A stretch of DNA of 64,000 bases from an uncultured Muribaculaceae bacterium. Its GTDB lineage: Bacteria > Bacillota_I > Bacilli_A > RF39 > UBA660. The stretch is taken from NCBI GenBank assembly GCA_964600615.1, contig CAZRJK010000003.1:11142-75141 (forward strand), written 5' to 3'. This document shows, in pieces, positions 19,641-59,372 of the stretch (the stretch's first letter is position 1; every line of letters starts with the position of its first letter). The notes under the pieces are model-generated. The model saw only the letters and a list, made by a program, of their open reading frames with translations. It was not told the origin of the DNA and ran no database searches. The position numbers and the translations under genes were made by a program.

Positions 19641-19666
19641 AAAATAAAAAGCACTTTTAAGTGCTT
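19641..19666 (-). terminator. Intrinsic terminator after the downstream aguA copy
   Basis: AAGCACT-TTTA-AGTGCTT hairpin overlapping the stop codon, followed by a U-rich tract on the minus strand. Confidence 0.55.
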
Positions 19667-20782: not shown

Positions 20783-21877
20783 TTATTTTGGCTGTTGTTG
20801 AGTAATGCAGTGAATATTTCCTCCACCATATATTACTTCTTTTGAAAATACACCAACTATATCTTTATCTGGAAAGATACTCTTTAATTGTTTAATAGCT
20901 AATCTATCATTTTCATCACCAAATTGAGGGACAACTACTGCATCATTAGTGATTAAAAAGTTCATGTAAGATGCTACACATGGTTCTCCTTCTTCTCTTG
21001 GTTTACTTCCATCTACGCAATCAATTTTAAAATCTTTGCCTATTTTTACATCTTCTTTCGGCATACATAACTTATGAACTTTTAGTTTTCTTCCTTTGGC
21101 ATCTGTCTCGTTTATTAATTTATTATAAGCATCTTGGCATGCTTTATAATAAGGATTCTTTTCATCATCCGTCCAGATACAAATAACTTCTCCTGGTCTG
21201 GCAAAGCAGGCAACATCATCTACGTGTCCATTTGTTTCGTTTGGATCTATTCCATCTTTAATCCAAATTATTTTTTCTAGATTTAAGTATTCTTTTAGTT
21301 TTTGTTCTATTTGATTTTTATCTAGATGGGGGTTTCTTCCTTTAGATAGTAGGCACATTTCAGTAGTAAGTAATGTTCCTTCACCATCTACAGATATTGA
21401 TCCACCTTCTAGAACGAAGTTTTTTACTTTGTAACAGTATTGTTCTTCTATTTCACATACTTTTTCTGGAATTGCATCATCTTTATCCCAAGGAAAATAT
21501 AATCCATCATATAAGCCGCCCCAGGCGTTGAAATCCCAATCGACGCATCTTACTTCGCCAGTTTTATCCTTTTTGACGAATGTTGGTCCACAATCGCGCA
21601 TCCATGCATCGTTATTAGACATTTCTACTACTCTAATATCTTCAGGTAGCATACGTCTACAATTAGCAAATTGTTCATGAGAGACACACATTGTTACTGG
21701 AGTATATTTTGATATTACTGTAGCAATATTTTTATATGCTTCTTGGGCTGGTTTTGCTCCGTTACGCCAATTATCTGGTCTTTCAGGCCAAATCATCCAT
21801 ATTCTTTTATGTGGTTCAAATTCTCCTGGCATTCTAAAACCATCTTTTTTAGGTGTACTATTAACTATTCTTTTCAT
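20783..21877 (-). CDS. aguA: Agmatine deiminase (copy 1 in transcription order)
   Basis: TPKKDGFRMPGEFEPH...NNDAWMRDCGPTF...GGGNIHCITQQ. Confidence 0.9.
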   Translation of the reverse strand: MKRIVNSTPKKDGFRMPGEFEPHKRIWMIWPERPDNWRNGAKPAQEAYKNIATVISKYTPVTMCVSHEQFANCRRMLPEDIRVVEMSNNDAWMRDCGPTFVKKDKTGEVRCVDWDFNAWGGLYDGLYFPWDKDDAIPEKVCEIEEQYCYKVKNFVLEGGSISVDGEGTLLTTEMCLLSKGRNPHLDKNQIEQKLKEYLNLEKIIWIKDGIDPNETNGHVDDVACFARPGEVICIWTDDEKNPYYKACQDAYNKLINETDAKGRKLKVHKLCMPKEDVKIGKDFKIDCVDGSKPREEGEPCVASYMNFLITNDAVVVPQFGDENDRLAIKQLKSIFPDKDIVGVFSKEVIYGGGNIHCITQQQPK

Positions 21878-23348: not shown

Positions 23349-24335
23349 TTAAATTCCTAAATTCTTTTTGCAAATTTCTTCAGTTTCTTCTTTTTTACCC
23401 ATGAAGTATACAAGTAATCCTCTCATTGCTGTTAATCTATTTTCTGCTTCATCAAAACAAATTGATACTTTTGGATCATCCATAACCTCATCAGTTACTT
23501 CTTCTCCTCTAGTTGCTGGTAGGCAGTGCATAAATTTGACATTTGGTGAGCATTTTTTTAACATTTCATGATTTACTTGATATTTTGGATAAAATATTTT
23601 CATTCTTTCTTCTTTTGGAAGTTCTGATTCATATAATCCATACCATACATCTGTATAGATAAAATCAGCATCTTTTAGTGCTTCTTCTTCATTATCAGTA
23701 ATTAAATAACTTCCACCACTTACTTTGCAGTTTTCTTCTAATGCTTCTACGTAATCTCCTTTTAGTTGGAATCCTTCTGGTCCAAAGTGTACATAATGTC
23801 CACCCATTTTTGTAATCATCATGCCCAAAGATGCGCATACTTGAGTACAATCTCCAACAAAAACCACTTTGCAATCTTCAATTTTTTTACCTTCTGGCAT
23901 ATGCTCAAAGATTGTTATGATATCACCCATTTCTTGTGTTGGATGATTGTAATCACTCATACCATTTAAAACTGGTACTGTTGAATATTTTGCAAGTTCT
24001 TCTACTGTCTTGTGTTGTTGTACACGAGCCATTATGATATCTGTTAATCTTGAAAGTACTATTGATGTATCTTTCATACTTTCGTGTTTACCAAGTTGTA
24101 TTTGGCCTGGTGCTAGATATTGAGCATGTCCGCCTAGTTGTGTCATGGCTGTTTCAAATGAAACACGAGTTCTAGTAGATGATTGCTCAAATATCATTCC
24201 TAATGTTTTATGGTATAAAACATTAAGAGGATAACCCGCTTTAATATTCTTTTTGATTAGAATACTCAAATTTAGAATATCTAACAATTCTTCTTTCGTA
24301 AAATCTTGAGTTGTAATGTAATCTTTAACTCTCAT
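23349..24335 (-). CDS. ptcA: Putrescine carbamoyltransferase
   Basis: Very close by eye to E. faecalis PTCase ([65 protein letters not shown]). The start MRVKDY at 24335 is preceded by GGAGGAGAG. Confidence 0.92.
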
Positions 24336-24428
24336 CTCTCCTCCTTCTATTATTACTTTTAGTATAGCACAAATGATATTCCATTTCAATTAAAATTATA
24401 AAAAAAATAAAAGAATTATATCTTTTAT

Positions 24429-24690: not shown

Positions 24691-25350
24691 TTATTTGTAT
24701 TTAATTCCTCTATTTACTTTTATATATTTTTTAGATTTGGTAATATTTAATAATTTTTCTTCATCAAACCATTTACATGAGAATGTATCTATAGTTGTTT
24801 TCTCTTTTTCCCTATGGATAGAAATATGGGATTCTGCTATTGGTTGCAACAAATCATATTCATATTCATTTTTTTTGTTTTCTATTACTTCTCTTATTGG
24901 TGTCATTTCTATTTCTGTTAAAATGTTATCGATTAATTTTTTAGATTCATTAAATGTTAAGGTATTGGCATCTCTAATTATTATATGCTTTCCAAATTTT
25001 CCTTCGATATCGTTTTTTTGACATAAATCATAATCTTTAGTTGGATAAATATCTAAGGCCATATTTTTAATATTATTATGATTTTTTTCTGCTCCAAAAT
25101 AATCTAAAAAATATGTGTTTTTATAGCAAAAAGTATGACAAGTAAAATGAGAATTATCTCCTAATATTATCCCACTTACGCCACCATCTTCTTTTATTTT
25201 ACCTTTAAAGTATGGGATTATTACAACTTTTCCTTTGTTATTAAAGATTATTTTGTTGATATTATCGATAAAAATATGCATTCTTTCCACATTTGATAAT
25301 AATTCACTATTTATATTGTATCCATCTAAAAAGAAATGTTTGCTATTCAT
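24691..25350 (-). CDS. Tandem-duplicated S-adenosylmethionine-decarboxylase-fold (pyruvoyl enzyme) protein
   Basis: There are two SpeD/SpeH-like halves. The N-half has GVSGIILGDNSHFTCHTF. The C-half has the canonical LLQPIAESHISIH self-processing motif. Each half opens with a (S/G)KH...(L/I) segment like single-domain AdoMetDC. Confidence 0.7.
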   Translation of the reverse strand: MNSKHFFLDGYNINSELLSNVERMHIFIDNINKIIFNNKGKVVIIPYFKGKIKEDGGVSGIILGDNSHFTCHTFCYKNTYFLDYFGAEKNHNNIKNMALDIYPTKDYDLCQKNDIEGKFGKHIIIRDANTLTFNESKKLIDNILTEIEMTPIREVIENKKNEYEYDLLQPIAESHISIHREKEKTTIDTFSCKWFDEEKLLNITKSKKYIKVNRGIKYK

Positions 25351-25360
25351 ATTTACTACC

Positions 25361-27448
25361 TTACTTTCTATATTGGCTATACTCTTCTATTCTTTTTATA
25401 TATGAGTCTAGCTCAAAATCTATATCTGATAAATCTTTTAATATTTTTAAGGTTACTTTGTTATATTCTTTTAAATCTTCTATTTTTTTATTTGTTAATT
25501 CTAATTTATGCTTATTTATTATATCTAGTAATTCTTTTTTTATTTCTTCATGTATTTCTTTATCTAGGCCTTTTAATTTATTAATTATTTCTGATACATA
25601 TATAGTTACTATATCATGTCTTTCTTCTTTGTTATCTAAATTAACTTTACCTTCTTTAATTATATCTAGGCTATTATCTAATTGTTCTATTAGATTACCA
25701 TCTTTTATATATTCTCCTTCATATTTATCTAAGTAAGCATATTTATTTATTTCATCTAATAAAGATTGAATATCTTCTCTTATTTCTTTTTCCATATCTT
25801 CTATTGTTATACTTCTTAATTTTTTTTCATCATGTAATATGTCATTTAGTAAATATATATAATTTTTCTTTTTAGTAATAAATTTATTTTTTAATTCTTC
25901 TTTATATTTGCTTTCGGATAATTTATTTATTACGTATTCAATATTATTAAATAAATTCTTTATATCATTATTATCTATAAATTCTGTTACTTCTCTTGCA
26001 GAAAGTACTTTATCTAGTAATTCTTTAAATGGTTTCCTTTTTTCGGCTGTATTTGCTACTTCATCATAGATAGTATTTAATTCTTTTCTTAATTCTAATT
26101 CATAATCTATTTGATTATTTAATGGGATTTTATCTTTTAGGATGTTTTCAAATTCATTACTAGCGAGTTCTAGTGTTTTATCAATAATATTTTTTAATCT
26201 ATCTAAATAACTTTCTCTTTTATCATCAGGTAAGAATTTACAATAATAGACTATATTTTTAATCATATTTTCTAGATTACTATCTTCTTTTTCTAATTTT
26301 TTAATATCCATATTTAAATATTCTTTATACTTCGATATATCAGATATTTTTTGAATTAAACTTTGTTCTCTTGCTAAGCTTAATTTTATTAATTCTAGAT
26401 CAGATAATAATTGGGGTTTTAGAGTAGTTATATCTTTTTTCCCAAATTTTAATTCCGTTTCTTCTTTTAACTTAGGTTTTAATAATTCTAGATTTTGTTT
26501 GTAGTCATCTAATAGTTTATTTATTCTAGTAATTATTATTTTTCTATTAGTTTCATCTAGATTTTCACATATTTTAGTTATTTCATCTACTTTTTCTTTT
26601 ATTTCTTTATCTTCTGTATTGTCTTGGGGTTTAGTTTTTTCTTCTTCATAAATGATATATTCTTGATTATCTTTATCTATTATTTTTGATATTTTATTCT
26701 TTTCTTCTTCAGATAATTCTTTTCCTTTAAGGATTAATGCTGTAGTTCTGTTAGTCAAATGATTTCCTAAAACGTCAAGTACTGAATGTGTACTAATCGT
26801 TCTATTAATTAACATATGATTCTTTTTGAAAAAACTATATAAATCTGTGAAATCTTTATATGTAACAATTACTTTTTCTAAATAAGTGCAGGTAGAAAAA
26901 TCGCATCTTATTTTGGCAGTTGATGGTATTGTTAGTGATTTTAGGCTTATGCAACTTGCAAAGGCATTTTCATTAATAAAGTCTACTTCTTCTGGTATTG
27001 TTACTGTTTGTAGATTAATACATCTGAAAAATAATCCTTCGCTTATTACTTTTAGATTTTTGGGTAAATCAATATGTTCAAGGTTTTCACATCCAGAAAA
27101 GCAACTTATACCTATTTCTTTTACTATATTAGGTATTTCTATTTTCTTTAATTCTTGGCAATCATAAAAAGCATAGTCTCTAATTTCCAATAGACCTTTA
27201 GGAAGGCTAATTTCTTTTAATGATCCACTTTTCGCAAAGGCATAGGGGGCAATTAATTTTAGATTTGGTGATAAGGCTATATGTCTTAGTGATGAATATG
27301 CGAAGCAATCTTCCCCAATTGCTTCTATTTTGGGTGACATGCGATAAAATACTCCCCTAAATATTGAACTTTTTCTAATTGTTTTTAATGTTACGTGTTC
27401 ATCTTCTATTATGTAGTCTTTATCTTCTATCTTAAAAATTAATCCCAT
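25361..27448 (-). CDS. Leaderless BspA-type LRR plus long coiled-coil protein, paralogue A
   Basis: About 190 aa of roughly 23-residue repeats (IxIPxxVxxIGxxxFxxCxxLxxI), then about 500 aa of K/E/D/N-rich helical sequence. No signal peptide or TM. The stop lies 10 nt upstream of the AdoMetDC-like start. Confidence 0.8.
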   Translation of the reverse strand: MGLIFKIEDKDYIIEDEHVTLKTIRKSSIFRGVFYRMSPKIEAIGEDCFAYSSLRHIALSPNLKLIAPYAFAKSGSLKEISLPKGLLEIRDYAFYDCQELKKIEIPNIVKEIGISCFSGCENLEHIDLPKNLKVISEGLFFRCINLQTVTIPEEVDFINENAFASCISLKSLTIPSTAKIRCDFSTCTYLEKVIVTYKDFTDLYSFFKKNHMLINRTISTHSVLDVLGNHLTNRTTALILKGKELSEEEKNKISKIIDKDNQEYIIYEEEKTKPQDNTEDKEIKEKVDEITKICENLDETNRKIIITRINKLLDDYKQNLELLKPKLKEETELKFGKKDITTLKPQLLSDLELIKLSLAREQSLIQKISDISKYKEYLNMDIKKLEKEDSNLENMIKNIVYYCKFLPDDKRESYLDRLKNIIDKTLELASNEFENILKDKIPLNNQIDYELELRKELNTIYDEVANTAEKRKPFKELLDKVLSAREVTEFIDNNDIKNLFNNIEYVINKLSESKYKEELKNKFITKKKNYIYLLNDILHDEKKLRSITIEDMEKEIREDIQSLLDEINKYAYLDKYEGEYIKDGNLIEQLDNSLDIIKEGKVNLDNKEERHDIVTIYVSEIINKLKGLDKEIHEEIKKELLDIINKHKLELTNKKIEDLKEYNKVTLKILKDLSDIDFELDSYIKRIEEYSQYRK

Positions 27449-27600
27449 GCTATACCTTCTTTCTTTTTTGCATTATTGTTTTTGTTTTTTTATTTGCTAT
27501 AACTATTATATTCTTCTAATTCTTTAGTGTATAAGTTAATTTTCAACTTTAGTCCTGCTATTTCTTTTAATATTTCTAAAGTTATTTTATTGTATTCTTT
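27324..27600. repeat. 277-nt direct repeat, copy 1 (5' end of paralogue A, intergenic, 3' end of paralogue B)
   Basis: By eye identical base-for-base to 29456..29732 (offset 2132 nt). Confidence 0.85.
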
Positions 27601-29580
27601 TAGACTTTCTATCTTTTTGTCACTTAATCTATTTAGATTATTGTTTATTATTTGTGTTAATTCTTTTTTTATAGTTCTTTTTATTTCATCATCAAATAAT
27701 TCTTGATTGTTTATCTTTATTATTATTTCTGCTACATATGATGTTATAGCTTGATTTTTATAATCTTTTTCATTTATTACTTCTTTATTATTTATTAGTT
27801 CTATACTTTCTCTTAATTGAGTTATTATGTTACTATTGGTAAATAGTTCTCCTTCATATTGATCTAATCTAGCATAATTGTTTATTAATTCTAATAAAGG
27901 ATGTAAATATTTTCTTATTTCTTGTTCTATATCTTCATATGTTATACTTCTTAATTTATTTTTATCTTTCATTATTTTATCAAGTAATTTTATATATTTT
28001 TCTTTTGTTTTACTATATATATTTTTTAAATCTTCTTTATATTTACTATTTGATAGTTTATCTATTATATAATTAATATTACCTATTAGACTGGCTAAAT
28101 CATCATTTTCTTTATATTCTGTTTCATCGGTAGATATTAGTTTATCATATAATAGTTTAAATGGTTTTAGTTTTTCTCCCTCATTAACTACCTTATCATA
28201 TATTTCAGTTATTTTTGTTCTTAATTCTAATTCATAATCTATATTATCATTTAATTTTATTTTATTATCAAGGACATTTTCAAATTCGTTGCTAGCTTGT
28301 TCTAATGTTTTATCTATTATTGTCTTTAGTCTATCTAGGTAATTATTCTTTTTATCATCTGTTAAAAATTGTGAATAATATACTATATTTTTAATTAGAT
28401 TATCTAGGGTATATTCATCTTTTCCTAATTCTGTTATATCTATCTTTAAATATTCTTTATACTTTGATATATCAGATATTTTTTTAATTAGATTTTGTTC
28501 TCTTGAAAGTTTTAATTTTATTGAATCTAAGTTTGCTAAAAGATTGGGTTTTAGTGTTGTTATATTCTTTTTATATGTTCCAAATGGAGTTTCTTCTCCA
28601 AATTTTGGTTTTAATGCTTTTTGATCTTCTTCATATTCTTTAATTAATTTATTTACTTTATCTAATATTATTTCTTTATTAGCATTATCTAATTTATCAC
28701 ATATTTTAATTATTTCGTCTACTTTTTCTTTTATTTCTTTATCTTCTGTATTGTCTTGGGGTTTAGTTTTTTCTTCTTCATAAATGATATATTCTTGATT
28801 ATCTGTATTTAATAATTCTGTTATTTTATTCTTTTCTTCTTTTGATAATTCTGATCCTTTTAGAAATAAGTGTGTTGTTATTTTTGGTAAGGGAATTCTT
28901 TGGGCGGTGAATACTGTTCGTTTACCAATAGTTTCGTTAATTAGGTCTATGTTCATTTTGAAAAAATTATATAGATCTTTGAAATCTTTGTATGTCACAG
29001 TTATTCCCTCTAAAAAAATGCAGGTAGTAAAATCACAATTTATTTTGGCGGTTGATGGAATTGTTAGCGATCTTATCCTGAAACAATTTGTGAAGGCTTT
29101 CTTATCAATTAATTTTACTTTTTCTGGTAGTGTTACTATTTTTAAATCTTCACAGCCAAAGAATAAACATCTACTTATTTCTTTCATGTCTTGGGGTAAT
29201 TTAATTTGTTCAAGGGCTTTACAATAGGCAAAACATTCGGAACCTATTTCTTTTACGGAATTTGGTATTTCTATTTTTTTTAATTTATGACAATTATCAA
29301 AAGCATAATCTCTAATTTCTGATAAACCTTGAGGAAGTCGAATTTCTTCTAATGATTCACTTCTCATAAAGGCACCAGGGGCAATTATTTTTAGATTTGG
29401 TGATAAGGCTATATGTCTTAGAGATGAATATGCAAAACAATTTTCTCCGATTGCCTCTATTTTGGGTGACATGCGATAAAATACTCCCCTAAATATTGAA
29501 CTTTTTCTAATTGTTTTTAATGTTACGTGTTCATCTTCTATTATGTAGTCTTTATCTTCTATCTTAAAAATTAATCCCAT
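27490..29580 (-). CDS. Leaderless BspA-type LRR plus long coiled-coil protein, paralogue B
   Basis: Same architecture as A and C. Its first 46 aa match A. Its central roughly 330 aa are nearly identical to C. Confidence 0.8.
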   Translation of the reverse strand: MGLIFKIEDKDYIIEDEHVTLKTIRKSSIFRGVFYRMSPKIEAIGENCFAYSSLRHIALSPNLKIIAPGAFMRSESLEEIRLPQGLSEIRDYAFDNCHKLKKIEIPNSVKEIGSECFAYCKALEQIKLPQDMKEISRCLFFGCEDLKIVTLPEKVKLIDKKAFTNCFRIRSLTIPSTAKINCDFTTCIFLEGITVTYKDFKDLYNFFKMNIDLINETIGKRTVFTAQRIPLPKITTHLFLKGSELSKEEKNKITELLNTDNQEYIIYEEEKTKPQDNTEDKEIKEKVDEIIKICDKLDNANKEIILDKVNKLIKEYEEDQKALKPKFGEETPFGTYKKNITTLKPNLLANLDSIKLKLSREQNLIKKISDISKYKEYLKIDITELGKDEYTLDNLIKNIVYYSQFLTDDKKNNYLDRLKTIIDKTLEQASNEFENVLDNKIKLNDNIDYELELRTKITEIYDKVVNEGEKLKPFKLLYDKLISTDETEYKENDDLASLIGNINYIIDKLSNSKYKEDLKNIYSKTKEKYIKLLDKIMKDKNKLRSITYEDIEQEIRKYLHPLLELINNYARLDQYEGELFTNSNIITQLRESIELINNKEVINEKDYKNQAITSYVAEIIIKINNQELFDDEIKRTIKKELTQIINNNLNRLSDKKIESLKEYNKITLEILKEIAGLKLKINLYTKELEEYNSYSK
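27814..28745. repeat. About 0.9-kb near-identical block shared by paralogues B and C (copy in B)
   Basis: Matches 30150..31081 at a constant offset of 2336 nt. The antisense ORFs 27878..28072 and 30214..30408 are identical as a result. Confidence 0.85.
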
Positions 29581-29732
29581 GCTATACCTTCTTTCTTTTT
29601 TGCATTATTGTTTTTGTTTTTTTATTTGCTATAACTATTATATTCTTCTAATTCTTTAGTGTATAAGTTAATTTTCAACTTTAGTCCTGCTATTTCTTTT
29701 AATATTTCTAAAGTTATTTTATTGTATTCTTT
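29456..29732. repeat. 277-nt direct repeat, copy 2 (5' end of paralogue B, intergenic, 3' end of remnant ORF)
   Basis: Identical by eye to 27324..27600. Confidence 0.85.
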
Positions 29733-29750
29733 TTTAAAGAATAGGCCCAT
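29622..29750 (-). pseudogene. Internally deleted remnant of an LRR/coiled-coil paralogue (42-aa ORF)
   Basis: Minus strand encodes MGLFFKKEYNKITLEILKEIAGLKLKINLYTKELEEYNSYSK. This is a family N-terminus (MGLxFK) joined directly to the last 35 residues of paralogue B. Confidence 0.7.
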
Positions 29751-29807
29751 TTTGATCACTCTTTTCTTTTATTTTCTATGTTTTTAATTTTTTGACATAT
29801 AAGTTTA

Positions 29808-31928
29808 TTATTTTGTATATTTAGAGCTATTTTTATAATAGTTAAATTCTTTAGTTTGGTTGATAAATATGTTTATTTCAAATTTTATTTCTTCTAATTG
29901 TTTTAATATTTCTAAGGTTATTTTGTTGTATTCTTTTAAGCTTTCTATTTTTTTGTCACTTAATTCATTTAATTTTTCATTTATTATTAATAATAATTTT
30001 TCTCTTATAATTTTTCGCGTTTCATTGTTAAATAATTCTTCATTATTGCACTTAATTATTATTTCTGCTACATCTGATGTTATAGCTTTATTTTTATAAT
30101 CTTTTTCTTCTGCTGATTTTTCATTATTTATTATTTTAAGACTATCCATTAATTGAGTTATTATGTTACTATTTGTAAATAGTTCTCCTTCATATTGATC
30201 TAATCTAGCATAATTGTTTATTAATTCTAATAAAGGATGTAAATATTTTCTTATTTCTTGTTCTATATCTTCATATGTTATACTTCTTAATTTATTTTTA
30301 TCTTTCATTATTTTATCAAGTAATTTTATATATTTTTCTTTTGTTTTACTATATATATTTTTTAAATCTTCTTTATATTTACTATTTGATAGTTTATCTA
30401 TTATATAATTAATATTACCTATTAGACTGGCTAAATCATCATTTTCTTTATATTCTGTTTCATCGGTAGATATTAGTTTATCATATAATAGTTTAAATGG
30501 TTTTAGTTTTTCTCCCTCATTAACTACCTTATCATATATTTCAGTTATTTTTGTTCTTAATTCTAATTCATAATCTATATTATCATTTAATTTTATTTTA
30601 TTATCAAGGACATTTTCAAATTCGTTGCTAGCTTGTTCTAATGTTTTATCTATTATTGTCTTTAGTCTATCTAGGTAATTATTCTTTTTATCATCTGTTA
30701 AAAATTGTGAATAATATACTATATTTTTAATTAGATTATCTAGGGTATATTCATCTTTTCCTAATTCTGTTATATCTATCTTTAAATATTCTTTATACTT
30801 TGATATATCAGATATTTTTTTAATTAGATTTTGTTCTCTTGAAAGTTTTAATTTTATTGAATCTAAGTTTGCTAAAAGATTTGGTTTTAGTGTTGCTATA
30901 TTCTTTTTATATGTTCCAAATGGAGTTTCTTCTCCAAATTTTGGTTCTAAACTTGCTAAATCTTTTTCATACTCTTTTATTAATTTATTTACTTTATCTA
31001 ATATTATTTCTTTATTCGCATTATCCAATTTATCACATATTTTAATTATTTCATCTACTTTTTCTTTTATTTCTTTGTCTTTTGTGTTATCTTGAGTTTT
31101 AGTTTTTTCTTCATCGTATGATATATATGGATAATTATCTTCCCCTATAATCTCTTTAATTTGTTCTTTTTCTTCTTTGGTTAGTTTGTTTCCTTTTAAA
31201 ATTAACTGTCTTTTAATTAGTTTGTTATCTAACGTAGTTATTGAATCTTCAACCCATTGTGTTCCCATTAATTGGTCTAAAAAGTATCCTTCATTTTTTT
31301 GAAAAAAATTATATAAATCTTTAAAGTTTTTATATGTTACAATTATTGTTTTTAGTTTTTCACACTTTTTAAAGCCACATATTCTTTCAGTTGTTGATGG
31401 TAGTGTCAATGTTTCTAAACTTTTGCAATTATCAAAGGCATGGTCTTTAATTGCTTCTAGCTCTTCGGGCATTTTAATTGTCTTTAGATTTTCGCATGAC
31501 GTAAATAAATATTCATTAATTTCTTTTAAATGCTTTGGTAGTTTAACATATTCTAAATTTTCACATTTACTAAAACAACCTTCACCTATCTCTATTACTG
31601 AATCAGGTATTTCAATTCTTTTAATTTTGGAACATTCATAAAATACATAAGCGCCTATTTCTCTAGTTTTATTTGGGATTCTTATTTCTTCGATATCACT
31701 ATTTTGGAATGCTTCTCCCTCAATAAATAATAAATTTTGTGGAAGAGTTATCCTCTTTATGTAAGAATTTTTAAAACAATTATGGGCTATTACTTGTATT
31801 TTTGGTGAAACATTATAATATATCCCCTTAAAACTAGTTTTTATTGAATTAAAATCCCATGCTAAAGCTCTTAATACTATCTTTTTGTTATCTATATAGT
31901 AATCTAAATATTCTGTTTTTAATCCCAC
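29808..31928 (-). CDS. Leaderless BspA-type LRR plus long coiled-coil protein, paralogue C (GTG start)
   Basis: Same architecture with a divergent LRR N-terminus. The start codon is GTG where A and B have ATG in the same context. The start lies 1 nt after the ygjV-like stop. Confidence 0.78.
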   Translation of the reverse strand: MGLKTEYLDYYIDNKKIVLRALAWDFNSIKTSFKGIYYNVSPKIQVIAHNCFKNSYIKRITLPQNLLFIEGEAFQNSDIEEIRIPNKTREIGAYVFYECSKIKRIEIPDSVIEIGEGCFSKCENLEYVKLPKHLKEINEYLFTSCENLKTIKMPEELEAIKDHAFDNCKSLETLTLPSTTERICGFKKCEKLKTIIVTYKNFKDLYNFFQKNEGYFLDQLMGTQWVEDSITTLDNKLIKRQLILKGNKLTKEEKEQIKEIIGEDNYPYISYDEEKTKTQDNTKDKEIKEKVDEIIKICDKLDNANKEIILDKVNKLIKEYEKDLASLEPKFGEETPFGTYKKNIATLKPNLLANLDSIKLKLSREQNLIKKISDISKYKEYLKIDITELGKDEYTLDNLIKNIVYYSQFLTDDKKNNYLDRLKTIIDKTLEQASNEFENVLDNKIKLNDNIDYELELRTKITEIYDKVVNEGEKLKPFKLLYDKLISTDETEYKENDDLASLIGNINYIIDKLSNSKYKEDLKNIYSKTKEKYIKLLDKIMKDKNKLRSITYEDIEQEIRKYLHPLLELINNYARLDQYEGELFTNSNIITQLMDSLKIINNEKSAEEKDYKNKAITSDVAEIIIKCNNEELFNNETRKIIREKLLLIINEKLNELSDKKIESLKEYNKITLEILKQLEEIKFEINIFINQTKEFNYYKNSSKYTK
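30150..31081. repeat. About 0.9-kb near-identical block shared by paralogues B and C (copy in C)
   Basis: Matches 27814..28745. Confidence 0.85.
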
Positions 31929-31929
31929 G

Positions 31930-32433
31930 CTATACCTTCTTTCTTTTTTGTAATATTGGTATTAATAATACTATGTTTGATATTGCTATTATTCCATCTA
32001 TTAATAATCCTGCCCAAGATAGGACATAAATATTATATATTACCCAAATTGTATATGAGATGCAGGCTCCTAATGTTACATATTTTTTTTCTAATGTTAG
32101 AGTGTAACCATCTATTAGGCTTGCTGCTATTGGTAAATAGTCATACCAAGTTCTTACGGAAAAGAAACTGATTAATAGATATATTATAGCACTTATAATA
32201 AAGATATATTTATCTTTATCTGTTTTATAATATAGAAAATCTCTAGTTCCTTCTAATAAATATATAAATGCTCCGCTGTATGCTCCTAATAATAAATAGT
32301 GAATGAAATCTAATGAATTTGATATTATATGAAATGATAATACTTTGTTAGTATCTTTTCTAAAGTAACTTAATATTAAGAATATTCCAGCTATTAGTCC
32401 TATTAATTGTATTATTATGAAGTTAATATTCAT
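31930..32433 (-). CDS. YgjV-like inner membrane protein
   Basis: 167 aa with about five TM segments. The resemblance to the YgjV family is by pattern only. Confidence 0.45.
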   Translation of the reverse strand: MNINFIIIQLIGLIAGIFLILSYFRKDTNKVLSFHIISNSLDFIHYLLLGAYSGAFIYLLEGTRDFLYYKTDKDKYIFIISAIIYLLISFFSVRTWYDYLPIAASLIDGYTLTLEKKYVTLGACISYTIWVIYNIYVLSWAGLLIDGIIAISNIVLLIPILQKRKKV

Positions 32434-32448
32434 ATTAGATTCTTCTTT

Positions 32449-33444
32449 CTATTTTATATCTGCCCATAATTTATCGTATAATGATATATGTTCACCTATA
32501 TTTTTTACATAATATCCATTTTTAAAGATACTTGCTGGTTCTATTATACTTTCCTGTATTATATTATTGGGACTTATATATGGGTATTCTTTTACTATTT
32601 CTTTGCTTACTTCATTTCTTAATAAGTAATTTATAAATAAATATGCATTATTTATATTTTTTGCTCCATCTACTATACAATAATTATCTGTACTTATTGC
32701 ATGTCCTTCTAATGGATCAATTATTTCAATATTATGATTTTCATTTTTAGCTATTTCAGCTTCAGCGTTCCACATTATTCCTATATCTGCTTCTTCCGTA
32801 ATGAAGAAAGTTTTAGGGCTATCACTGTCATATGCTTTAATATTATTTTTTAGTTCTAGTAGCCATTCTTTAGCTTTAGTTAAGGAATTAGTACTTGTTT
32901 CATTCATTCCTAAATTATTAGCAAGTAATGACATACCTATTACTATTCTTTGGTCATCTATCATGACAATATTATTTTTATAATTAGTATTTAATAGGTC
33001 GTTATATCCTCTAATATCGTCTTTTATTTTATCTTTATTTACTGCTATTACAACAATTGTACTTAAGAAAGGATATGAATATTCATTATTATAGTCATAT
33101 GGTTGATTTAAAAACATTTTATTTAAATTTATTACATTAGGTAATCTATCTTTTTCTAATTTTTGGATTAGTCCTCTTTCTTTCATTAATTCTACCATAT
33201 AATCACTGGGAAATATTACATCATATGTTCCTTTTTTAGATGAAGTTATTTTGGCTAATAATTCTTCGTTTGAAGAATAAGTTCCATAATTTACTTTAAT
33301 GTTATATTCTTTTTCAAAATTATCTATTACTTCATCTGGTATATATGAAGACCAATTTAAAACGTTAACTACCTTTTTGTTAGTTGTATTATTACATCCT
33401 GTAAATAATATTAATATTACAAGTAATAATATTGTTTTTTTCAT
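32449..33444 (-). CDS. potD: Spermidine/putrescine ABC transporter substrate-binding lipoprotein
   Basis: Lipobox LFTGC and PotD-like sequence (NWSSYIPDEVI..FEKEY.IKVNY). It is the last gene of potABCD. Confidence 0.88.
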   Translation of the reverse strand: MKKTILLLVILILFTGCNNTTNKKVVNVLNWSSYIPDEVIDNFEKEYNIKVNYGTYSSNEELLAKITSSKKGTYDVIFPSDYMVELMKERGLIQKLEKDRLPNVINLNKMFLNQPYDYNNEYSYPFLSTIVVIAVNKDKIKDDIRGYNDLLNTNYKNNIVMIDDQRIVIGMSLLANNLGMNETSTNSLTKAKEWLLELKNNIKAYDSDSPKTFFITEEADIGIMWNAEAEIAKNENHNIEIIDPLEGHAISTDNYCIVDGAKNINNAYLFINYLLRNEVSKEIVKEYPYISPNNIIQESIIEPASIFKNGYYVKNIGEHISLYDKLWADIK

Positions 33445-34229
33445 GACCTATCACCTTCTATAATGCTTTTAGATTGGTATAAGGCTGATATAGTTAATAA
33501 TACTATTGTTACTATTAACATTACGGTTGATAACGCATTTACATCAGGAGTTATTCCAGTTTTTATCATAGAATATATTTTTAATGGTAAGGTATTGCTT
33601 CCTGGTCCTGCGGTAAAATAGCTTATTACTACATCGTCTAATGATAAGGTAAATGATAGTGTTGCTCCACTTATTACACCTGGCATTATTGCAGGTAATG
33701 TTACTTTAAAGAATGTATTTAAGGGGTTAGCTCCTAAATCTTGTGCTGCTTCTTCATATGTAGTTATTAAGGGAGATAAATTAGATCTTACACTTACTAT
33801 TACAAAAGGTATAGAGAATGCTATATGGGATAGTATTAGTGTAGGCATTCCTAATTCTAATTTCATTAGGGTATAGATTGATAATAAAGAAATACCTAAT
33901 ACTATTTCTGGTATTACTATTGGTATATATATTAATTTATTTATTAATCCTTTAAATGGAAAGTTATATTTATATAGTCCTACTGCTCCTAGAGTACCTA
34001 TAATGGTTGATACTACTGTACTAGTTATGGCTATTATCATGGTATTTCCAAATGCTTCTAATAGGTCAGTATTAGTTAGCATTGTTTTATACCATTCTAG
34101 GGTAAATCCTTCAAAAATTATATTCATTTTTGAGGTATTAAATGAATATGCTATTAAAATTACTATTGGTAGAAATAGGAAGATAAATACTAATGCTACA
34201 AATAAGTTTTTTAAAGTTTTATTTTTCAT
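33441..34229 (-). CDS. potC: Spermidine/putrescine ABC transporter permease
   Basis: Six-TM permease with an EAA-like loop (EEAAQDLGANPLNTFFKVTLP). Confidence 0.88.
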   Translation of the reverse strand: MKNKTLKNLFVALVFIFLFLPIVILIAYSFNTSKMNIIFEGFTLEWYKTMLTNTDLLEAFGNTMIIAITSTVVSTIIGTLGAVGLYKYNFPFKGLINKLIYIPIVIPEIVLGISLLSIYTLMKLELGMPTLILSHIAFSIPFVIVSVRSNLSPLITTYEEAAQDLGANPLNTFFKVTLPAIMPGVISGATLSFTLSLDDVVISYFTAGPGSNTLPLKIYSMIKTGITPDVNALSTVMLIVTIVLLTISALYQSKSIIEGDRS

Positions 34230-35086
34230 TACATACCTCCTAAATCATCTAATTTACCACCTGTTTTTTGATATAGTCTTACTAATAAGAAGGTTATTAT
34301 GATTAAGAATATAGATATAGCTGAACCTAGTGGCCAATTTCTTGCAGTTAAGAATTGATTCTTTATTAAGTTACCGATTATCATTACTTTACCTCCACCT
34401 AGGATATCAGAGATAAAGAAATATCCTATAGCAGGCATAAACACCATTAGAGAACCATTAAATACTCCAGATATAGTTTCTGGAATAATTATATTCTTAA
34501 ATATTTGGAATGGTTTTGCTCCTAGGTCTCTAGCAGCTTCTATTATATTGTTATCTATTTTAAAGACAGCACTACAAACTGGTAAAATCATAAATGGTAA
34601 TAATGTATAAGTCATACCTATTATTATTCCAAAGTTATTATACATTAGTTCTAATGGTTTAGTAATTATATTAGCACCTAATAAAGTATTATTAATTACA
34701 CCATTTTTTCTTAATAATACTATCCATCCATAGGTTCTAATAAGTGAATTAGTTAAGAATGGTATCATTACTAATTTAGTCATTAGGTTTCTTACTTTTT
34801 CACTTTTTTCTCTTAATATTAAGGCAAATGGATATGATATACAAATACATATAAATGTTGTTAATATTCCTATTAGGCTAGATTTTAATAAGATTTTTAT
34901 ATAAGTTATATTAATAATTGTTAAATAATTGTTTAAACTGAAATTATATATTACTCCTCCATAGGAATCACTTTTACAAAAACTTAAAAATAATATATAT
35001 AATAATGGTAATAAAATTAGTATAATACTGTAAATTACTACTGGTGATAAGAATAAATATTTAAATATATTATTATTCTTTTTCAT
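34229..35086 (-). CDS. potB: Spermidine/putrescine ABC transporter permease
   Basis: Six-TM permease with an EAA loop (IEAARDLGAKPFQIFKNIIIP). Confidence 0.88.
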   Translation of the reverse strand: MKKNNNIFKYLFLSPVVIYSIILILLPLLYILFLSFCKSDSYGGVIYNFSLNNYLTIINITYIKILLKSSLIGILTTFICICISYPFALILREKSEKVRNLMTKLVMIPFLTNSLIRTYGWIVLLRKNGVINNTLLGANIITKPLELMYNNFGIIIGMTYTLLPFMILPVCSAVFKIDNNIIEAARDLGAKPFQIFKNIIIPETISGVFNGSLMVFMPAIGYFFISDILGGGKVMIIGNLIKNQFLTARNWPLGSAISIFLIIITFLLVRLYQKTGGKLDDLGGM

Positions 35087-36158
35087 TTGTTGTGCCTCTT
35101 ATTGGTACGACATACTCTTCATCAAGTTTTAAATATATTGTTTCTTCCTCGTTAATATCAATATTACCATTAATATTTACTTTTAAATTTAAATCTCCTT
35201 CGGTATCGATAAATAGTTTTGTTACTGATCCATCATAAACAACATCTTTTACTATTCCTTTTATACTAGCTTTTAATTCGTTTTTAGATAATTTAATATT
35301 TTCTGGTCTTATTAATAAATTTATTTTGTCTTCTCTTTTATCAAAATCTTCTTTAGGAAATGTAAATGTTATTTTATCTTCGTTAGTTATTACTTTTATT
35401 TTATCTTTAGTTACTTCTTTTATTGTACTAGGTATAATATTTGATTCACCTATAAAATCTGCAGCAAAGACTGTTTTAGGATGACGATAGATGTTTTGGG
35501 GAGTATCATTTTGTTCAATTTTACCTTTTTCTATTATTACTATTCTATCACTCATAGTTAGTGCTTCGTCTTGATCATGAGTTACATAGATAAATGTTAT
35601 TCCTGATTGTTTTTGTATTTTTTTTAATTCTATTTGCATTTTTCTTTTTAATTTTAAATCTAGGGAGCATAATGATTCATCTAGTAATAATACTTTGGGA
35701 TTCATTACTATTCCTCTTGCGATAGCTACTCTTTGTTGTTGGCCTCCTGATAATTGGGAAGGTAATCTATCTTCAAATCCTTCTAATTTTACTAGTTTTA
35801 TTACTTTCTTTACCCTTTTATTTATTTCTGTTTGGGATAGTTTTTTCATTCTTAATCCAAAACTTATATTATCCCAAGTTGTCATGTGTGGAAATAAAGC
35901 AAAATTTTGAAAAATAGTATTTACTTCTCTTTTAGTAGGATCTACTTCTGTTACATCAATATCATCTATGTATACTTTACCTTCTGTTACGTGTTCTAGC
36001 CCTGATATCATTCTTAAAATAGTAGTTTTACCACATCCTGAAGAACCTAATAAGGTTAAGAATTCTCCTTCATATACATCTAGTGATAAATTCTTTATTA
36101 CGTAGTTGTCATTAAACTTTTTAGATACGTTATCTAATCTAACTAATACTTTATCCAT
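35073..36158 (-). CDS. potA: Spermidine/putrescine ABC transporter ATPase
   Basis: Walker A GSSGCGKTT, signature LSGGQQQRV and Walker B LLLDESL, with a C-terminal regulatory domain. The ORF extends to 36176; MDKVLV at 36158 is the likelier start. Confidence 0.9.
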   Translation of the reverse strand: MDKVLVRLDNVSKKFNDNYVIKNLSLDVYEGEFLTLLGSSGCGKTTILRMISGLEHVTEGKVYIDDIDVTEVDPTKREVNTIFQNFALFPHMTTWDNISFGLRMKKLSQTEINKRVKKVIKLVKLEGFEDRLPSQLSGGQQQRVAIARGIVMNPKVLLLDESLCSLDLKLKRKMQIELKKIQKQSGITFIYVTHDQDEALTMSDRIVIIEKGKIEQNDTPQNIYRHPKTVFAADFIGESNIIPSTIKEVTKDKIKVITNEDKITFTFPKEDFDKREDKINLLIRPENIKLSKNELKASIKGIVKDVVYDGSVTKLFIDTEGDLNLKVNINGNIDINEEETIYLKLDEEYVVPIRGTTNEKE

Positions 36159-36195
36159 AATCATCCATCCTATCATATATAATTATAACAAATTA

Positions 36196-41205: not shown

Positions 41206-41229
41206 AAAACAAGATATTTATCTTGTTTT
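41206..41229 (-). terminator. Stem-loop after the deacetylase gene
   Basis: AAAACAAGAT-ATTT-ATCTTGTTTT hairpin. The U tract is only partial. Confidence 0.45.
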
Positions 41230-47004: not shown

Positions 47005-47026
47005 AATTCACCTCTAGTATTATTAG

Positions 47027-47049
47027 AAAAAAGTTCAGTTAAACTGAAC
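47027..47049 (-). terminator. Intrinsic terminator after telA-like gene
   Basis: GTTCAG-TTTAA-CTGAAC hairpin followed by 6 U on the minus strand. Confidence 0.6.
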
Positions 47050-47052
47050 ATT

Positions 47053-48198: not shown

Positions 48199-48215
48199 AA
48201 TAATTATCTCCTTCT

Positions 48216-59348: not shown

Positions 59349-59372
59349 AAGAAGTAGTTTTTTCTACTTCTT
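59349..59372 (-). terminator. Stem-loop after the giant repeat protein gene
   Basis: AAGAAGTAG-TTTTTT-CTACTTCTT hairpin overlapping the stop, with a U-rich tail on the minus strand. Confidence 0.5.

Follow-up and report, generated by a model that had tools for sequence, protein, structure and literature searches.

A tandem array of leucine-rich repeat paralogues with a common helical tail and mosaic sequence identity, located between two polyamine gene clusters

If the proteins described here are displayed on a surface, they would be comparable to the BspA-type leucine-rich repeat (LRR) surface proteins and the variable surface proteins of mycoplasmas. BspA-like families are expanded in host-associated Mollicutes, where they are viewed as host-interaction proteins (PMC4206474). 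We analyzed a tandem array of LRR paralogues within a window of 64,000 nucleotides of a contig from an uncultured bacterium, and all positions below refer to that stretch. We consider it likely that the array arose in situ and comprises four copies, three of them intact and one internally deleted, of a gene encoding a swappable head on a rod, that conversion has acted on it piecemeal, and that its adjacency to polyamine genes is positional. The array would have grown by tandem duplication, with its first boundary within the 3′ end of a ygjV-family gene, and conversion between copies would then have homogenized it over tracts of 278, 707 and 87 nt, while one copy may have been lost through an internal deletion at a microhomology. 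Judging from the architecture of the proteins, the LRR head would bind a ligand and the rod could provide a common spacing, assembly or docking function.

Layout of the array and a relic fourth copy

An earlier note had proposed three paralogues of about 700 amino acids, each combining LRRs with a helical region, and the open reading frames begin and end exactly where it had placed them. The genes and domains are as follows.

24691–25350, minus strand: AdoMetDC-like gene (219 aa; Pfam AdoMet_dc, E 3e-16), 10 nt downstream of A
25361–27448, minus strand: paralogue A, 695 aa, an ORF call with a Pfam LRR_5 head
25364–26662, minus strand: C-terminal all-alpha module of A (aa 263–695), from profile search, AF2 tail model and hhalign
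26861–27415, minus strand: LRR solenoid of A (aa 12–196), about eight 23-residue repeats of the BspA/TpLRR type, from Pfam, AF2 and Foldseek
27490–29580, minus strand: paralogue B, 696 aa, with the 5′ end of A and the centre of C
29622–29750, minus strand: relic of a fourth paralogue, a 42-codon ORF (MGLFFKKEYNKITLEILKEIAGLKLKINLYTKELEEYNSYSK) inside the C–B spacer
29808–31928, minus strand: paralogue C, 706 aa, GTG start, composed of LRR_5 head, alpha/beta cap and helical tail of four units
31930–32433, minus strand: ygjV-family membrane protein gene (Pfam Imp-YgjV), the upstream neighbour of C

The GTG start of C is backed by a conserved MGL N-terminus and by a GAAGG Shine-Dalgarno motif, both shared with A and B. 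Only 1 nt separates ygjV from C, 41 nt separate B from A, and 10 nt separate A from the next gene. Spacers had been put at 10 to about 55 nt throughout, but the one between C and B measures 227 nt and harbours the relic copy. The relic ORF joins the N-terminus of the paralogues (MGLFFK) to the last 35 codons of the tail, which are identical to the C-terminus of B; a TTTAA(A)AGA microhomology marks the junction. It is matched by the tail HMM at positions 400–435 (E 2e-12), and an identical 42-aa ORF was called in two independent assemblies (L002 and L003). By its sequence, the relic is an internally deleted fourth copy. The final ~30 nt of ygjV are homologous to the spacers 5′ of A and B (repeat family D6, 89%), which suggests that the original duplication boundary was located there.

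The LRR head, the helical tail and their family

Pfam LRR_5 (PF13306) matches all three proteins at approximately aa 40–200 with E values of 1e-49 to 1e-53 (4e-53 for C), and neither Pfam nor NCBIfam gave any other significant match in A, B or C. In the AF2 model, which has a pLDDT of 79.9 over the full length, LRR strands recur every 23 residues with a pLDDT of about 90. Foldseek matches to the head are restricted to BspA-type LRR structures (4fs7, 4gt6, 4fd0, 4cp6 (PcpA) and 6mlx (TpLRR)). A small alpha/beta cap is modeled between the LRRs and the tail, at aa 197–270. In other proteins, LRR_5 heads are fused to TIR_2 (P0053, P0071 and P0102) or to a caspase-like peptidase (P0091).

The remainder of each protein had been described as a K/E-rich helix of about 500 aa. 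Its helical character is borne out, but the tail is shorter, at about 435 aa, and is preceded by the cap. Nor does it form a continuous coiled coil: AF2 and hhalign both show four homologous three-helix units of about 100–115 aa, each with one short, one medium and one long helix. In the tail model, which has 15 helices and a pLDDT of 83.8, this short/medium/long pattern recurs four-fold, and hhalign comparisons of the tail quarters with one another scored 24–36, against 7–13 for column-shuffled and 12–14 for reversed controls. Based on the predicted structure (pTM 0.58) and on profile self-similarity, the simplest reading of the tail is a rod built of helical bundles in tandem.

The helical region matches no well-known family in the databases searched. 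It has no Pfam model and no sequence match in the PDB, where the best match by fold had an E value of 0.09 and a TM-score below 0.2, with no significant match to spectrin-like folds. No relative was found among the viral folds of BFVD, no known relative in PADLOC or PHROGs, and no homologue in the phage and plasmid records and viral contigs searched. No column of the tail alignment holds C, H, S or D at more than 65%, and no Walker A motif is present; as far as the alignment indicates, the tail has no conserved catalytic-type residues and no nucleotide-binding motif.

A tail HMM matches C at E 1e-204. A profile search retrieved 155 cluster representatives at E<1e-3 and 108 at E<1e-10. On this sequence evidence, at least 155 sequence clusters share the tail and make up a previously undescribed and uncharacterized family. 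Heads of ~150–950 aa precede the tail, which ends at the C-terminus in most full-length members; LRR_5 heads occur in 32 of the 60 members checked, and the remainder have no Pfam domain. The family is lineage-restricted and comes from uncultured, low-GC, spore-forming gut Bacilli; for the organism studied here, sporulation and a cell wall are inferred from SpoVAD, a sigma factor and glucosaminidases. Members of the family are probably non-enzymatic and consist, according to the models, of a binding head on a rod.

Cellular location and possible roles

The proteins had been called leaderless and unanchored, and this description holds: the N-termini of A, B and C are charged, and their maximum hydropathy over 19 residues (Kyte-Doolittle) stays below 1.0. 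Neither a lipobox nor an LPXTG motif is present in A, B, C or the family alignment, and a crude hydropathy screen of 150 listed family representatives found no signal-like N-terminus and no clear TM segment. With no Sec, lipoprotein or sortase signal, the proteins would either act in the cytoplasm or belong to a structure that is put together without export. These sequence features suggest a role as a cytoplasmic binder or scaffold, which we put forward only tentatively. In a spore-former, an export-free structure could be the spore surface, which the mother cell deposits.

Surface or spore display of leaderless proteins is possible but, on the same features, rather doubtful. The array would then encode a variable adhesin or antigen family, with the LRR head carried on a helical stalk outside the cell or spore and conversion yielding antigenic or binding variants. 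All Foldseek neighbours of the head are annotated as cell-surface LRR proteins, and the best NCBIfam match, far under the cutoff, is the adhesin HupY/LrrG. Adhesins commonly carry a head on a rod of helical bundles in tandem, the layout predicted for A, B and C. The host-interaction role ascribed to the expanded Mollicutes families and the frequency of conversion-prone tandem arrays among variable surface families point the same way. Spore-surface proteins require no signal peptide, and the organism sporulates. However, A, B and C lack a signal peptide, lipobox, TM segment, sortase motif and known wall-binding domain, and because the organism is walled, display on the vegetative cell would require classical export. 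Furthermore, dN/dS in the LRRs is 0.3–0.5 and variation falls at all repeat positions, which is not the signature of immune-driven diversification, and most of the converted sequence belongs to the conserved tail and to the 5′ end rather than to the binding head.

An anti-phage role is speculative, and we consider it unlikely that each gene is a single-gene conflict sensor whose cytoplasmic LRR head detects an invader protein and whose tail serves as effector or oligomerization module, in a gap resembling a defence island. Such a sensor would suit leaderless proteins with modular, swappable heads on a constant tail module, as well as a hot-spot at which presence, absence and copy number differ among close relatives, and the fusions of LRR_5 heads to TIR_2 and caspase-like domains would fit it too. 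C gave a weak and non-significant PADLOC match to the candidate PDC-M34B (E 8e-5, 20 bits), confined to the cap region, but A and B gave no PADLOC match. Moreover, no effector motif was found, whether NTPase, nuclease, TIR, protease or other, and no catalytic-type residue is conserved in the tail, which is highly charged and offers no hydrophobic hairpin for membrane attack. The array lies among housekeeping rather than defence genes, without mobile-element genes on either side, and no homologues were found in phages or plasmids.

The genomic setting also raises the idea that the array belongs to the polyamine system, as a co-transcribed regulator, scaffold or sensor of polyamine transport or catabolism, which we regard as improbable. 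The array occupies a variable gap in a conserved block that runs from potABCD to the genes for putrescine carbamoyltransferase (PTC) and agmatine deiminase. It points in the same direction as its neighbours and is tightly packed against ygjV and the AdoMetDC-like gene. As the earlier note had supposed, there is no terminator-like site on the minus strand from ~37.8 kb to 19.65 kb; promoter-like matches in the region occur no more often than they do after shuffling the sequence. Given the lack of terminators and the 1-nt gap to ygjV, co-transcription with the neighbours is possible. The potD–PTC gap also holds family members in three lineages (the window, L008 and L021), often beside copies of a GNAT acetyltransferase gene and ygjV: in L008, four genes of the tail family lie between potD and ygjV, and in L021 three precede ygjV and one follows it.

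A functional place in a polyamine operon is nevertheless not supported, given array-free pot–agu loci and single-copy members in unrelated contexts. L016, one of two loci from the closest relatives, reads potD–90aa–GNAT–ygjV–PTC, with no array, and ten more distant related loci lead from potD to PTC directly or via ygjV alone; in all of these, PTC–permease–aguA comes after potABCD and no family genes are present. In other genomes, single-copy members adjoin parAB/rpmH, yccF, ychF/pepF or a pseudouridine synthase gene (rluD-like), with no polyamine genes nearby. The link to polyamines is therefore probably positional rather than functional. In addition, arrays differ in their position within the gap and in their head types, and the A, B and C proteins show no likeness to a small-molecule-binding or regulatory domain. 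By gene order, the array is an accessory insertion in a hot-spot between two polyamine gene clusters, and its recurrence in the gap of three lineages could reflect more than a hot-spot. The AdoMetDC-like gene is missing at the corresponding place in the loci of the closest relatives, and no homologue of it was found in loci L007–L019 or L021.

Identity tracts between the paralogues

The patchy identity described in the earlier note is present in the form of exact tracts amid flanking segments that are 45–75% identical, in summary about 60–70%.

27324–27601: conversion tract 1, copy 1, running from the 3′ end of B through the 41-nt spacer into A (first 125 nt)
29456–29733: conversion tract 1, copy 2, running from the 3′ end of the relic through the spacer into B (first 125 nt)
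27839–28545: conversion tract 2, copy in B (707 nt exact), coding for roughly tail units 1–3
30175–30881: conversion tract 2, copy in C, 707 nt exact against B
26586–26672 in A and 28718–28804 in B: conversion tract 3 (87 nt exact), in the cap–tail linker

The identical 5′ end and upstream region of A and B correspond to tract 1, which is exact over 278 nt at an offset of 2132 and takes in the final 105 nt of the gene before. The nearly identical centre of B and C, of about 0.9 kb at an offset of 2336, matches at 892 of 921 positions over 27760–28680 and includes the 707-nt exact run; against a background of ~65% identity, the chance probability of such a run is negligible. Over tract 3, C is ~88% identical. 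For B against C, dS is ~1.7 in the LRR part and 0.05 in codons 301–600, while the comparison of A with B gives 0 upstream and over the first 40 codons, and 0.47 in the LRR part. Synonymous divergence that varies more than 30-fold between segments points to gene conversion. The tree topology also changes, from ((A,B),C) for the head to ((B,C),A) for the tail, and together with the dS contrast and the internally deleted fourth copy this upholds the proposal that the array copies recombine, by gene conversion or by unequal exchange. The further proposal, that variable LRR heads are shuffled onto a conserved stalk, stands for the conserved tail but not for diversifying heads: dN/dS is 0.2–0.6 throughout, and the LRRs show no sign of diversifying selection. 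Such values indicate purifying selection and therefore that A, B and C are functional copies.

All sequences are short-read metagenome assemblies. When an exact repeat exceeds the assembler's k-mer, a single stored node serves twice and minor differences between the copies can be lost, so the 707-nt and 278-nt tracts may be less exact than they look. The copy number of the array could likewise be underestimated. Contigs from other samples (L003 and L004) end inside the B/C tract, the L001 scaffold joins the 5′ part of C to the 3′ part of B across 100 N, and short contigs carry fragments with a C head and a B tail (P0004). Differences between samples fall nearly all within this tract and are mirrored in both copies, as expected of one graph node used twice, and this clustering and mirroring may be partly artefactual. 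That the tracts are wholly an artefact, produced by repeat collapse or bubble-popping among uniformly diverged paralogues, is nonetheless very improbable, because collapse merges only near-identical sequences and cannot turn ~65% identity into 100% over 707 nt, the tract edges are sharp with well-resolved divergent flanks, the independent assembly L002 covers the entire array with the same structure, and the L001 sequence agrees on either side of its gap. L003 retains five copy-specific differences inside the tract, indicating that near-identity of at least ~98% is real.

A second natural haplotype occurs in another sample (L003, P0238); there the 5′ ends of A and B are distinct, with five substitutions and an 11-nt indel between them. 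Over the distal half of the tail, A is the nearest of the three paralogues to P0121, the copy that follows ygjV in the relative L021, with identities over columns 551–650 of 78% and 59% for A and 66% and 41% for B.

The array and its polyamine-gene surroundings

Three paralogous ORFs set among polyamine genes had been described in the earlier note, and gene-by-gene annotation of the flanks agrees on both points. The paralogues (A, B and C) are all present on the minus strand, which carries nearly all genes of this AT-rich window (about 23–33% G+C). The array and its flanks comprise the following features:

33441–36176 and 32449–33444: potA, potB, potC and potD, upstream of the array on the coding strand
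31930–32433, minus strand: gene for a ygjV-family membrane protein, upstream of C on the coding strand
29808–31928, minus strand: C, ORF of 706 aa with a GTG start
27490–29580, minus strand: B, ORF of 696 aa
25361–27448, minus strand: A, ORF of 695 aa
24691–25350, minus strand: AdoMetDC-like gene, downstream of A, with a 219-aa product
23349–24389, minus strand: putrescine carbamoyltransferase (PTC; NCBIfam TIGR04384, 549 bits)
Further downstream: a run of an amino-acid/polyamine-type permease and two agmatine deiminases
Further downstream: a set of arginine deiminase (ADI), ornithine carbamoyltransferase (OTC), DcuC and carbamate kinase

No terminator-like sites were found on the minus strand from about 37.8 to 19.65 kb, and only 1 nt separates ygjV from C, which makes co-transcription of the array with its flanking genes in the window plausible from the sequence. 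The AdoMetDC-like gene starts 10 nt past A. Spacers had been put at no more than about 55 nt, but that between C and B measures 227 nt.

Within the flanks, the AdoMetDC-like protein matches Pfam AdoMet_dc over aa 5–91 only, and its NCBIfam SpeD score is below cutoff. The PTC start is ambiguous: the longest ORF, from a TTG, encodes 346 aa, and 328 aa are called in other assemblies, where gene callers also place a 62-aa ORF between PTC and the AdoMetDC-like gene. The adjacent agmatine deiminase genes (19665–20765 and 20783–21877, minus strand; each approximately 572 bits to TIGR03380) adjoin PTC, the permease and the full ADI, OTC, DcuC and carbamate kinase set, and their duplication is common to the window and to loci L016 and L021 of relatives.

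LRR head and helical tail

Each paralogue matches the BspA-type Pfam model LRR_5 (PF13306) over approximately aa 40–200, with E values of 9e-51, 9e-49 and 4e-53 for A, B and C, respectively, all comfortably past the model's cutoff. Beyond LRR_5, Pfam and NCBIfam gave no significant match in any of the three; an NCBIfam match of C to the HopBF1 kinase was dismissed as noise (22 bits against a cutoff of 200). In the AlphaFold2 model of A (pLDDT 79.9), an LRR solenoid (aa 12–196) is followed by a small alpha/beta cap (aa 197–270) and by about 12 helices of 12–40 residues each, with loops between them. The LRR strands recur every 23 residues, and Foldseek with the whole model of A matched only BspA-type LRR structures (E 7e-7 to 1e-4), namely the gut-bacterial structures 4fs7 and 4gt6 together with 4fd0, 4cp6 (PcpA) and 6mlx (TpLRR). 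Pfam, strand period and Foldseek agree on a 23-residue TpLRR/BspA-type solenoid as the head. Variable sites of the LRR repeat were not confined to one face but fell on every non-consensus position, which makes this comparison uninformative as to a hypervariable face.

BspA-type LRR proteins are abundant in gut and other host-associated microbes and are usually taken to be surface adhesins. The heads share their 23-residue solenoid with Tannerella forsythia BspA, Treponema pallidum TpLRR (6mlx) and pneumococcal PcpA (4cp6). In contrast to known BspA-like members, which are secreted or surface-anchored, A, B and C lack a signal peptide, a TM segment and an anchor, as had been noticed earlier from the sequence, and they have no lipobox either. 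This verdict comes from rule-based hydropathy and motif checks: the N-termini are charged (MGLIFKIEDKDY...) and not hydrophobic, the highest 19-residue hydropathy anywhere in the three proteins is below 1.0, and no lipobox, LPXTG or Walker A motif was found, nor any anchor domain in Pfam or NCBIfam. The export features of the BspA-like surface class (signal or lipobox plus TM segment, T9SS CTD, LPXTG or choline-binding repeats) are absent here. Internalins are defined by a signal peptide, LRRs of 22 residues, an Ig-like domain between repeats and an anchor of the LPXTG or GW type; the array proteins share only generic LRR similarity with them. BspA-like families are often expanded in host-associated organisms (PMC4206474).

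The array proteins further differ from BspA-like proteins by a C-terminal helical module of approximately 435 aa, the tail, which has no Pfam or structural match. A tail-only AlphaFold2 model (54 sequences; pLDDT 83.8, pTM 0.58) contains 15 helices with loops, the longest of approximately 35–40 residues, in place of the long coiled-coil helix suggested in the earlier note. Continuous coiled-coil stalks (M-protein, SMC-like) are distinguished by uninterrupted heptad helices of more than 100 residues, a feature that the tail lacks. Its helices follow the order short, medium, long, four times over, and hhalign between the tail quarters (95-sequence alignment) gave scores of 24–36 with probabilities of 53–93%, compared with 7–13 for column-shuffled and 12–14 for reversed controls. 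The scores and the helix pattern indicate four homologous units of approximately 100–115 aa each, and the predicted tail is most simply read as a rod of tandem three-helix bundles.

Pfam has no model for the tail, and the relaxed Pfam matches to Mob1, Tea_C and UPF0184 were dismissed as noise. A sequence-profile search of the PDB gave a best E of 0.42. Foldseek with the tail model found nothing significant in the PDB (best E 0.09, TM<0.2; top matches vinculin, alpha-catenin and the spectrin-like rod of PRC1) and nothing in BFVD, while PADLOC and PHROGs returned only LRR-driven or 20-bit matches, none significant for the tail. Across these sequence, fold, viral-fold, defence and phage libraries, the helical part did not match a well-known family; such a match was what the earlier note had named as a possible explanation of the function. 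Spectrin-type repeats, vinculin/alpha-catenin bundles and staphylococcal Ebh-type repeats form rods of tandem three-helix bundles, with homologous units of about 100 aa in the spectrin-like case. The four tail units, each predicted as three helices, invite comparison with them, but none matches the tail significantly in sequence or fold and its unit composition is family-specific; the resemblance to spectrin-like rods lies in repeat logic only.

Conservation in the tail alignment is confined to hydrophobic core positions and a few Tyr, Pro, Arg and Glu residues, with Y54, P63, L89 and R294 (profile numbering) being family-specific. No column is dominated by Cys, His, Ser or Asp, which suggests, as the best reading, a non-enzymatic role in structure or docking. 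The logic of a leaderless protein with an LRR recognition head and an all-helical C-terminal domain is shared with IpaH/SspH effectors. Their NEL E3 ligase, however, has an invariant catalytic Cys (CxD), whereas the tails contain no CxD and their top Cys column reaches 32%; NEL structures are absent among the Foldseek matches of the tail. The LRR subtype also differs, and the host here is a Gram-positive gut commensal, with no type III secretion genes seen in the window.

Word-index searches brought up very few full-length relatives. When 1.84 billion representatives were searched exhaustively with a profile of the tail alone, 155 proteins passed E<1e-3, 108 of them with E<1e-10. In full-length members, the tail lies C-terminal to heads of approximately 150–950 aa and reaches the C-terminus in most. 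The head is of LRR_5 type in 32 of 60 and has no Pfam match in the remainder. A crude hydropathy screen of the 150 family representatives listed showed no signal-like N-terminus in any of them, and no clear TM segment. A group of 44-aa proteins clustered with A (P0272–P0276) was considered as relics and rejected, the sequences being unrelated. A mobile-element origin was also rejected: no tail homologues occur in IMG/VR contigs, INPHARED phages or PLSDB plasmids.

The array proteins are best filed among BspA-like LRR proteins, set apart by an undescribed C-terminal helical-repeat module. Literature searches on BspA in Mollicutes, on LRRs with spore coat or exosporium and on LRR_5/PF13306 turned up nothing about the LRR-plus-tail architecture. 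What is new is the uncharacterised module, which existing domain and solved-structure libraries leave uncovered, together with the fact that export signals are consistently missing; in evolutionary terms, the pattern is a textbook one. The result is a coherent BspA-type subfamily of at least 155 clusters without any export signal. If the module were defined, many proteins now called hypothetical in metagenomes of the ruminant gut and other guts would be better annotated, and there would be a concrete target for asking how Gram-positive spore-formers use leaderless LRR proteins.

Mosaic identity, a relic and gene conversion

We compared A, B and C by codon-aware and sliding-window analysis. At an offset of 2336 nt, 27839–28545 equals 30175–30881 exactly (707 nt), and B and C are identical at 892 of 921 positions over 27760–28680, in line with the near-identical B/C centre reported earlier. 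At an offset of 2132 nt, 27324–27601 equals 29456–29733 exactly (278 nt). This second block contains the A/B identity that had been ascribed to the 5' end and upstream region, but it also runs into the preceding tail, spanning 105 nt of it, a 41-nt spacer and the first 125 nt of A and B. A third exact A/B tract covers 87 nt (26586–26672). Outside the tracts, identity drops to 45–75% within tens of bases, and synonymous divergence differs sharply between segments.

Synonymous divergence (dS, Nei–Gojobori) between paralogues, by segment
B/C, LRR part: about 1.7
B/C, codons 301–600: 0.05
A/B, LRR part: 0.47
A/B, first 40 codons: 0

The tree topology also changes along the genes, from ((A,B),C) in the head to ((B,C),A) in the tail. 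The sharp tracts, the dS contrast and the topology flip together point to gene conversion between tandem paralogues, and the mosaic first described from the sequence alone holds up. On data from short-read assemblies, the array appears to be a set of paralogues homogenised piecemeal by gene conversion. In bacteria, gene conversion is familiar from tandem or dispersed families such as the tuf genes, the opa and pil loci and mycoplasma variable-protein loci. The array resembles these in its tandem copies, sharp tracts, heterogeneous dS and topology flips. We saw no silent cassettes, invertible promoters or phase-variable repeats at the array that would indicate programmed switching.

The dN/dS ratio is 0.2–0.6 in every segment, indicating that the copies are under purifying selection, and the segment-wise values give no sign of diversifying selection in the LRRs. 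Of the proposal that variable LRR heads are shuffled onto a conserved stalk, the conserved tail stands, but the LRRs show no such selection. Another contrast with the known conversion families is that most of the tracts are found in the tail and at the 5' end, and not in the presumed binding surface.

The 227-nt spacer between C and B contains a 42-codon ORF (29622–29750; MGLFFKKEYNKITLEILKEIAGLKLKINLYTKELEEYNSYSK), which gene callers also predict in independent assemblies and which the tail HMM matches at E 2e-12. It begins as a paralogue N-terminus and, past a junction at the microhomology TTTAA(A)AGA, continues into the same C-terminal sequence as B. This relic is a fourth paralogue copy, lost by one internal deletion. 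With their GAAGG ribosome-binding site, the 41-nt spacers before A and B share 89% identity with the final 30 nt or so of ygjV, which precede C. This likeness indicates that the array grew in place and that the first duplication unit began inside the 3' end of ygjV. The locus offers a clean, small case of paralogue birth, death and gene conversion in a hot-spot between conserved operons, although it does not speak to any open question of long standing.

Other metagenome assemblies of the same species (L001–L004) are 99.7–100% identical over 9–17 kb, and nearly all differences between samples fall within the B/C tract, mirrored in both copies (4 of 5 in L002, 9 of 10 in L004). In L003, most differences are also of this kind, yet five are copy-specific. 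Mirrored differences are predicted by ongoing concerted evolution, but they are also expected if an exact repeat longer than k forms one de Bruijn node that is used twice, or if bubbles are popped; we therefore downgraded them as proof of concerted evolution. The contigs of L003 and L004 end inside the B/C tract, the L001 scaffold joins the 5' part of C to the 3' part of B over 100 N (9456–9555 of L001), and the database protein P0004 is a C-head/B-tail fragment, all of which fit either assembly collapse or genuine recombination. Sequences only 65% identical cannot be made near-identical by collapse, and the B/C tract itself is therefore real, whereas its exactness, the apparent parallel substitutions and the copy number are less secure. 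The locus illustrates that metagenome assembly from short reads can imitate concerted evolution or overstate it, and it carries a practical warning that copy number and chimeras here are not readable from such assemblies.

The 5' tract is more informative. The window and the independent assemblies L001 and L002 agree in that A and B have identical 5' ends. In L003 and in P0238, a fragment from another sample, B begins MGLFFKL..., an N-terminus resembling that of the relic, and differs from A by five substitutions and an 11-nt indel in the spacer. Such a difference between samples is better evidence of a strain-specific event than the B/C tract. Cross-strain comparison, which the earlier note had envisaged, thus yields a haplotype difference in the 5' tract, while B/C-tract differences and chimeras are ambiguous in short-read assemblies.

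A variable accessory spot and possible functions

Syntenic loci were retrieved with PotD, using one genome per species, and a metagenome scan yielded L021 only. The relatives are uncultured MAGs labelled Bacilli, Erysipelotrichaceae or "Tenericutes", mostly from ruminant guts. Their gene orders are as follows:

L016 (goat jejunum MAG): potABCD, 90-aa ORF, GNAT, ygjV, PTC, permease, aguA1, aguA2, ADI, OTC, DcuC; protein identity to the window 64–97% across the block and 84–97% in the pot-agu genes
L021 (metagenome contig, as close as L016; PotD 86%, PTC 94%): potD, three family genes (one degenerate), GNAT, ygjV, P0121, GNAT, ygjV, GNAT, PTC
L008: four tail-family genes between potD and ygjV, with a GNAT gene interspersed
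Ten more distant loci: potD then PTC, directly or via ygjV

L016 contains neither an LRR/tail gene nor an AdoMetDC-like gene. An AdoMetDC-like counterpart is likewise missing from L021 and from every other pot-agu locus compared; the gene may have come in with the array or on its own. Of the 13 related genome loci, 12 (11 of these with the pot-agu arrangement) have no family member, the exception being L008. Outside the window, members in pot-agu context occur in L008 and in the metagenome locus L021. The L008 copies have non-LRR heads and are 41–48% identical to each other and approximately 31% to A, B and C, while P0121 of L021 is 50% identical to A. All five single-copy members examined lie in non-polyamine contexts: between parAB and rpmH-rnpA, beside yccF, between ychF and pepF in another spore-former, after a pseudouridine synthase gene, and among unannotated genes.

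Across genomes, the family does not show conserved co-occurrence with pot or agu genes, and these absences and unrelated contexts argue that it is not tied to polyamine genes. The gap between potD and PTC is, in these comparisons, a variable accessory spot that has repeatedly hosted arrays of the tail family. In relatives, one to three GNAT genes and one or two ygjV copies occupy the gap (GNAT at 8831–9472 in L016, at about 13110–13870 in L008 and around ygjV in L021), and in the window it contains ygjV but lacks GNAT. Overall, it is a small, variable island in which the same kinds of gene recur.

The analysis demonstrates a tandem array of a modular family at an accessory locus, with piecemeal conversion and one internal deletion. 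Functionally, the head would bind a ligand and the four-unit module would provide a constant rod, docking or assembly function, in proteins that would not be exported by classical routes. We tentatively favour a cytoplasmic binder or scaffold, while regarding this as somewhat short of an even chance. Leaderless display, for example on the spore surface, is a somewhat unlikely second reading; the window encodes SpoVAD, a sporulation-type sigma factor, glucosaminidases and a polysaccharide deacetylase, which indicate that the source organism is a walled spore-former. A single-gene defence sensor is improbable. LRR_5 heads akin to those of the array are fused to TIR_2 or caspase-like peptidase domains in the metagenomic proteins P0053, P0071, P0102 and P0091, so BspA-type LRRs also serve in probable intracellular conflict proteins, but A, B and C carry no effector motif. 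They also lack the Walker A of STAND/NLR-like systems, and PADLOC found nothing for A or B, its sole match among the three being the cap region of C to the candidate PDC-M34B (20 bits). A true polyamine role is very improbable, given that the family is not tied to polyamine genes.

A broader and unlikely proposal is that spore-forming gut Bacilli possess a new class of leaderless "head-on-rod" proteins, defined by the conserved four-unit module. Through this module, interchangeable heads, whether LRR or not, could be docked onto a cell structure with no need of classical export, for example onto the spore surface, laid down from the mother cell. Alternatively, the module could form oligomers once a ligand is bound and act as an intracellular sensor of a new type. 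If the head-on-rod proposal were true, the arrays between potD and PTC would represent a recombination-driven repertoire of binding specificities.

Elsewhere in the window, four minus-strand genes (59371–63348, 57635–59173, 53848–55149 and 48216–49412, encoding 1325, 512, 433 and 398 aa, respectively) have no Pfam match at E<1e-5. A minus-strand cluster at 45415–51638 encodes an AAA ATPase, TelA (toxic anion resistance family), the 398-aa protein, which has no annotation, and a protein in which a VWA domain is joined to a solute-binding-like region. Two putative surface-type proteins (6148–7347 and 41228–42766, minus strand), one with a Listeria–Bacteroides repeat and the other with Ig-like domains and a polysaccharide deacetylase, indicate that the source organism does encode conventional wall-associated proteins. 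At the window edge, a large serine recombinase with Resolvase, Recombinase and zinc-ribbon domains (43–1317, plus strand) lies on the strand opposite most genes and may be the sign of a mobile element or of an excision element of the sporulation type.
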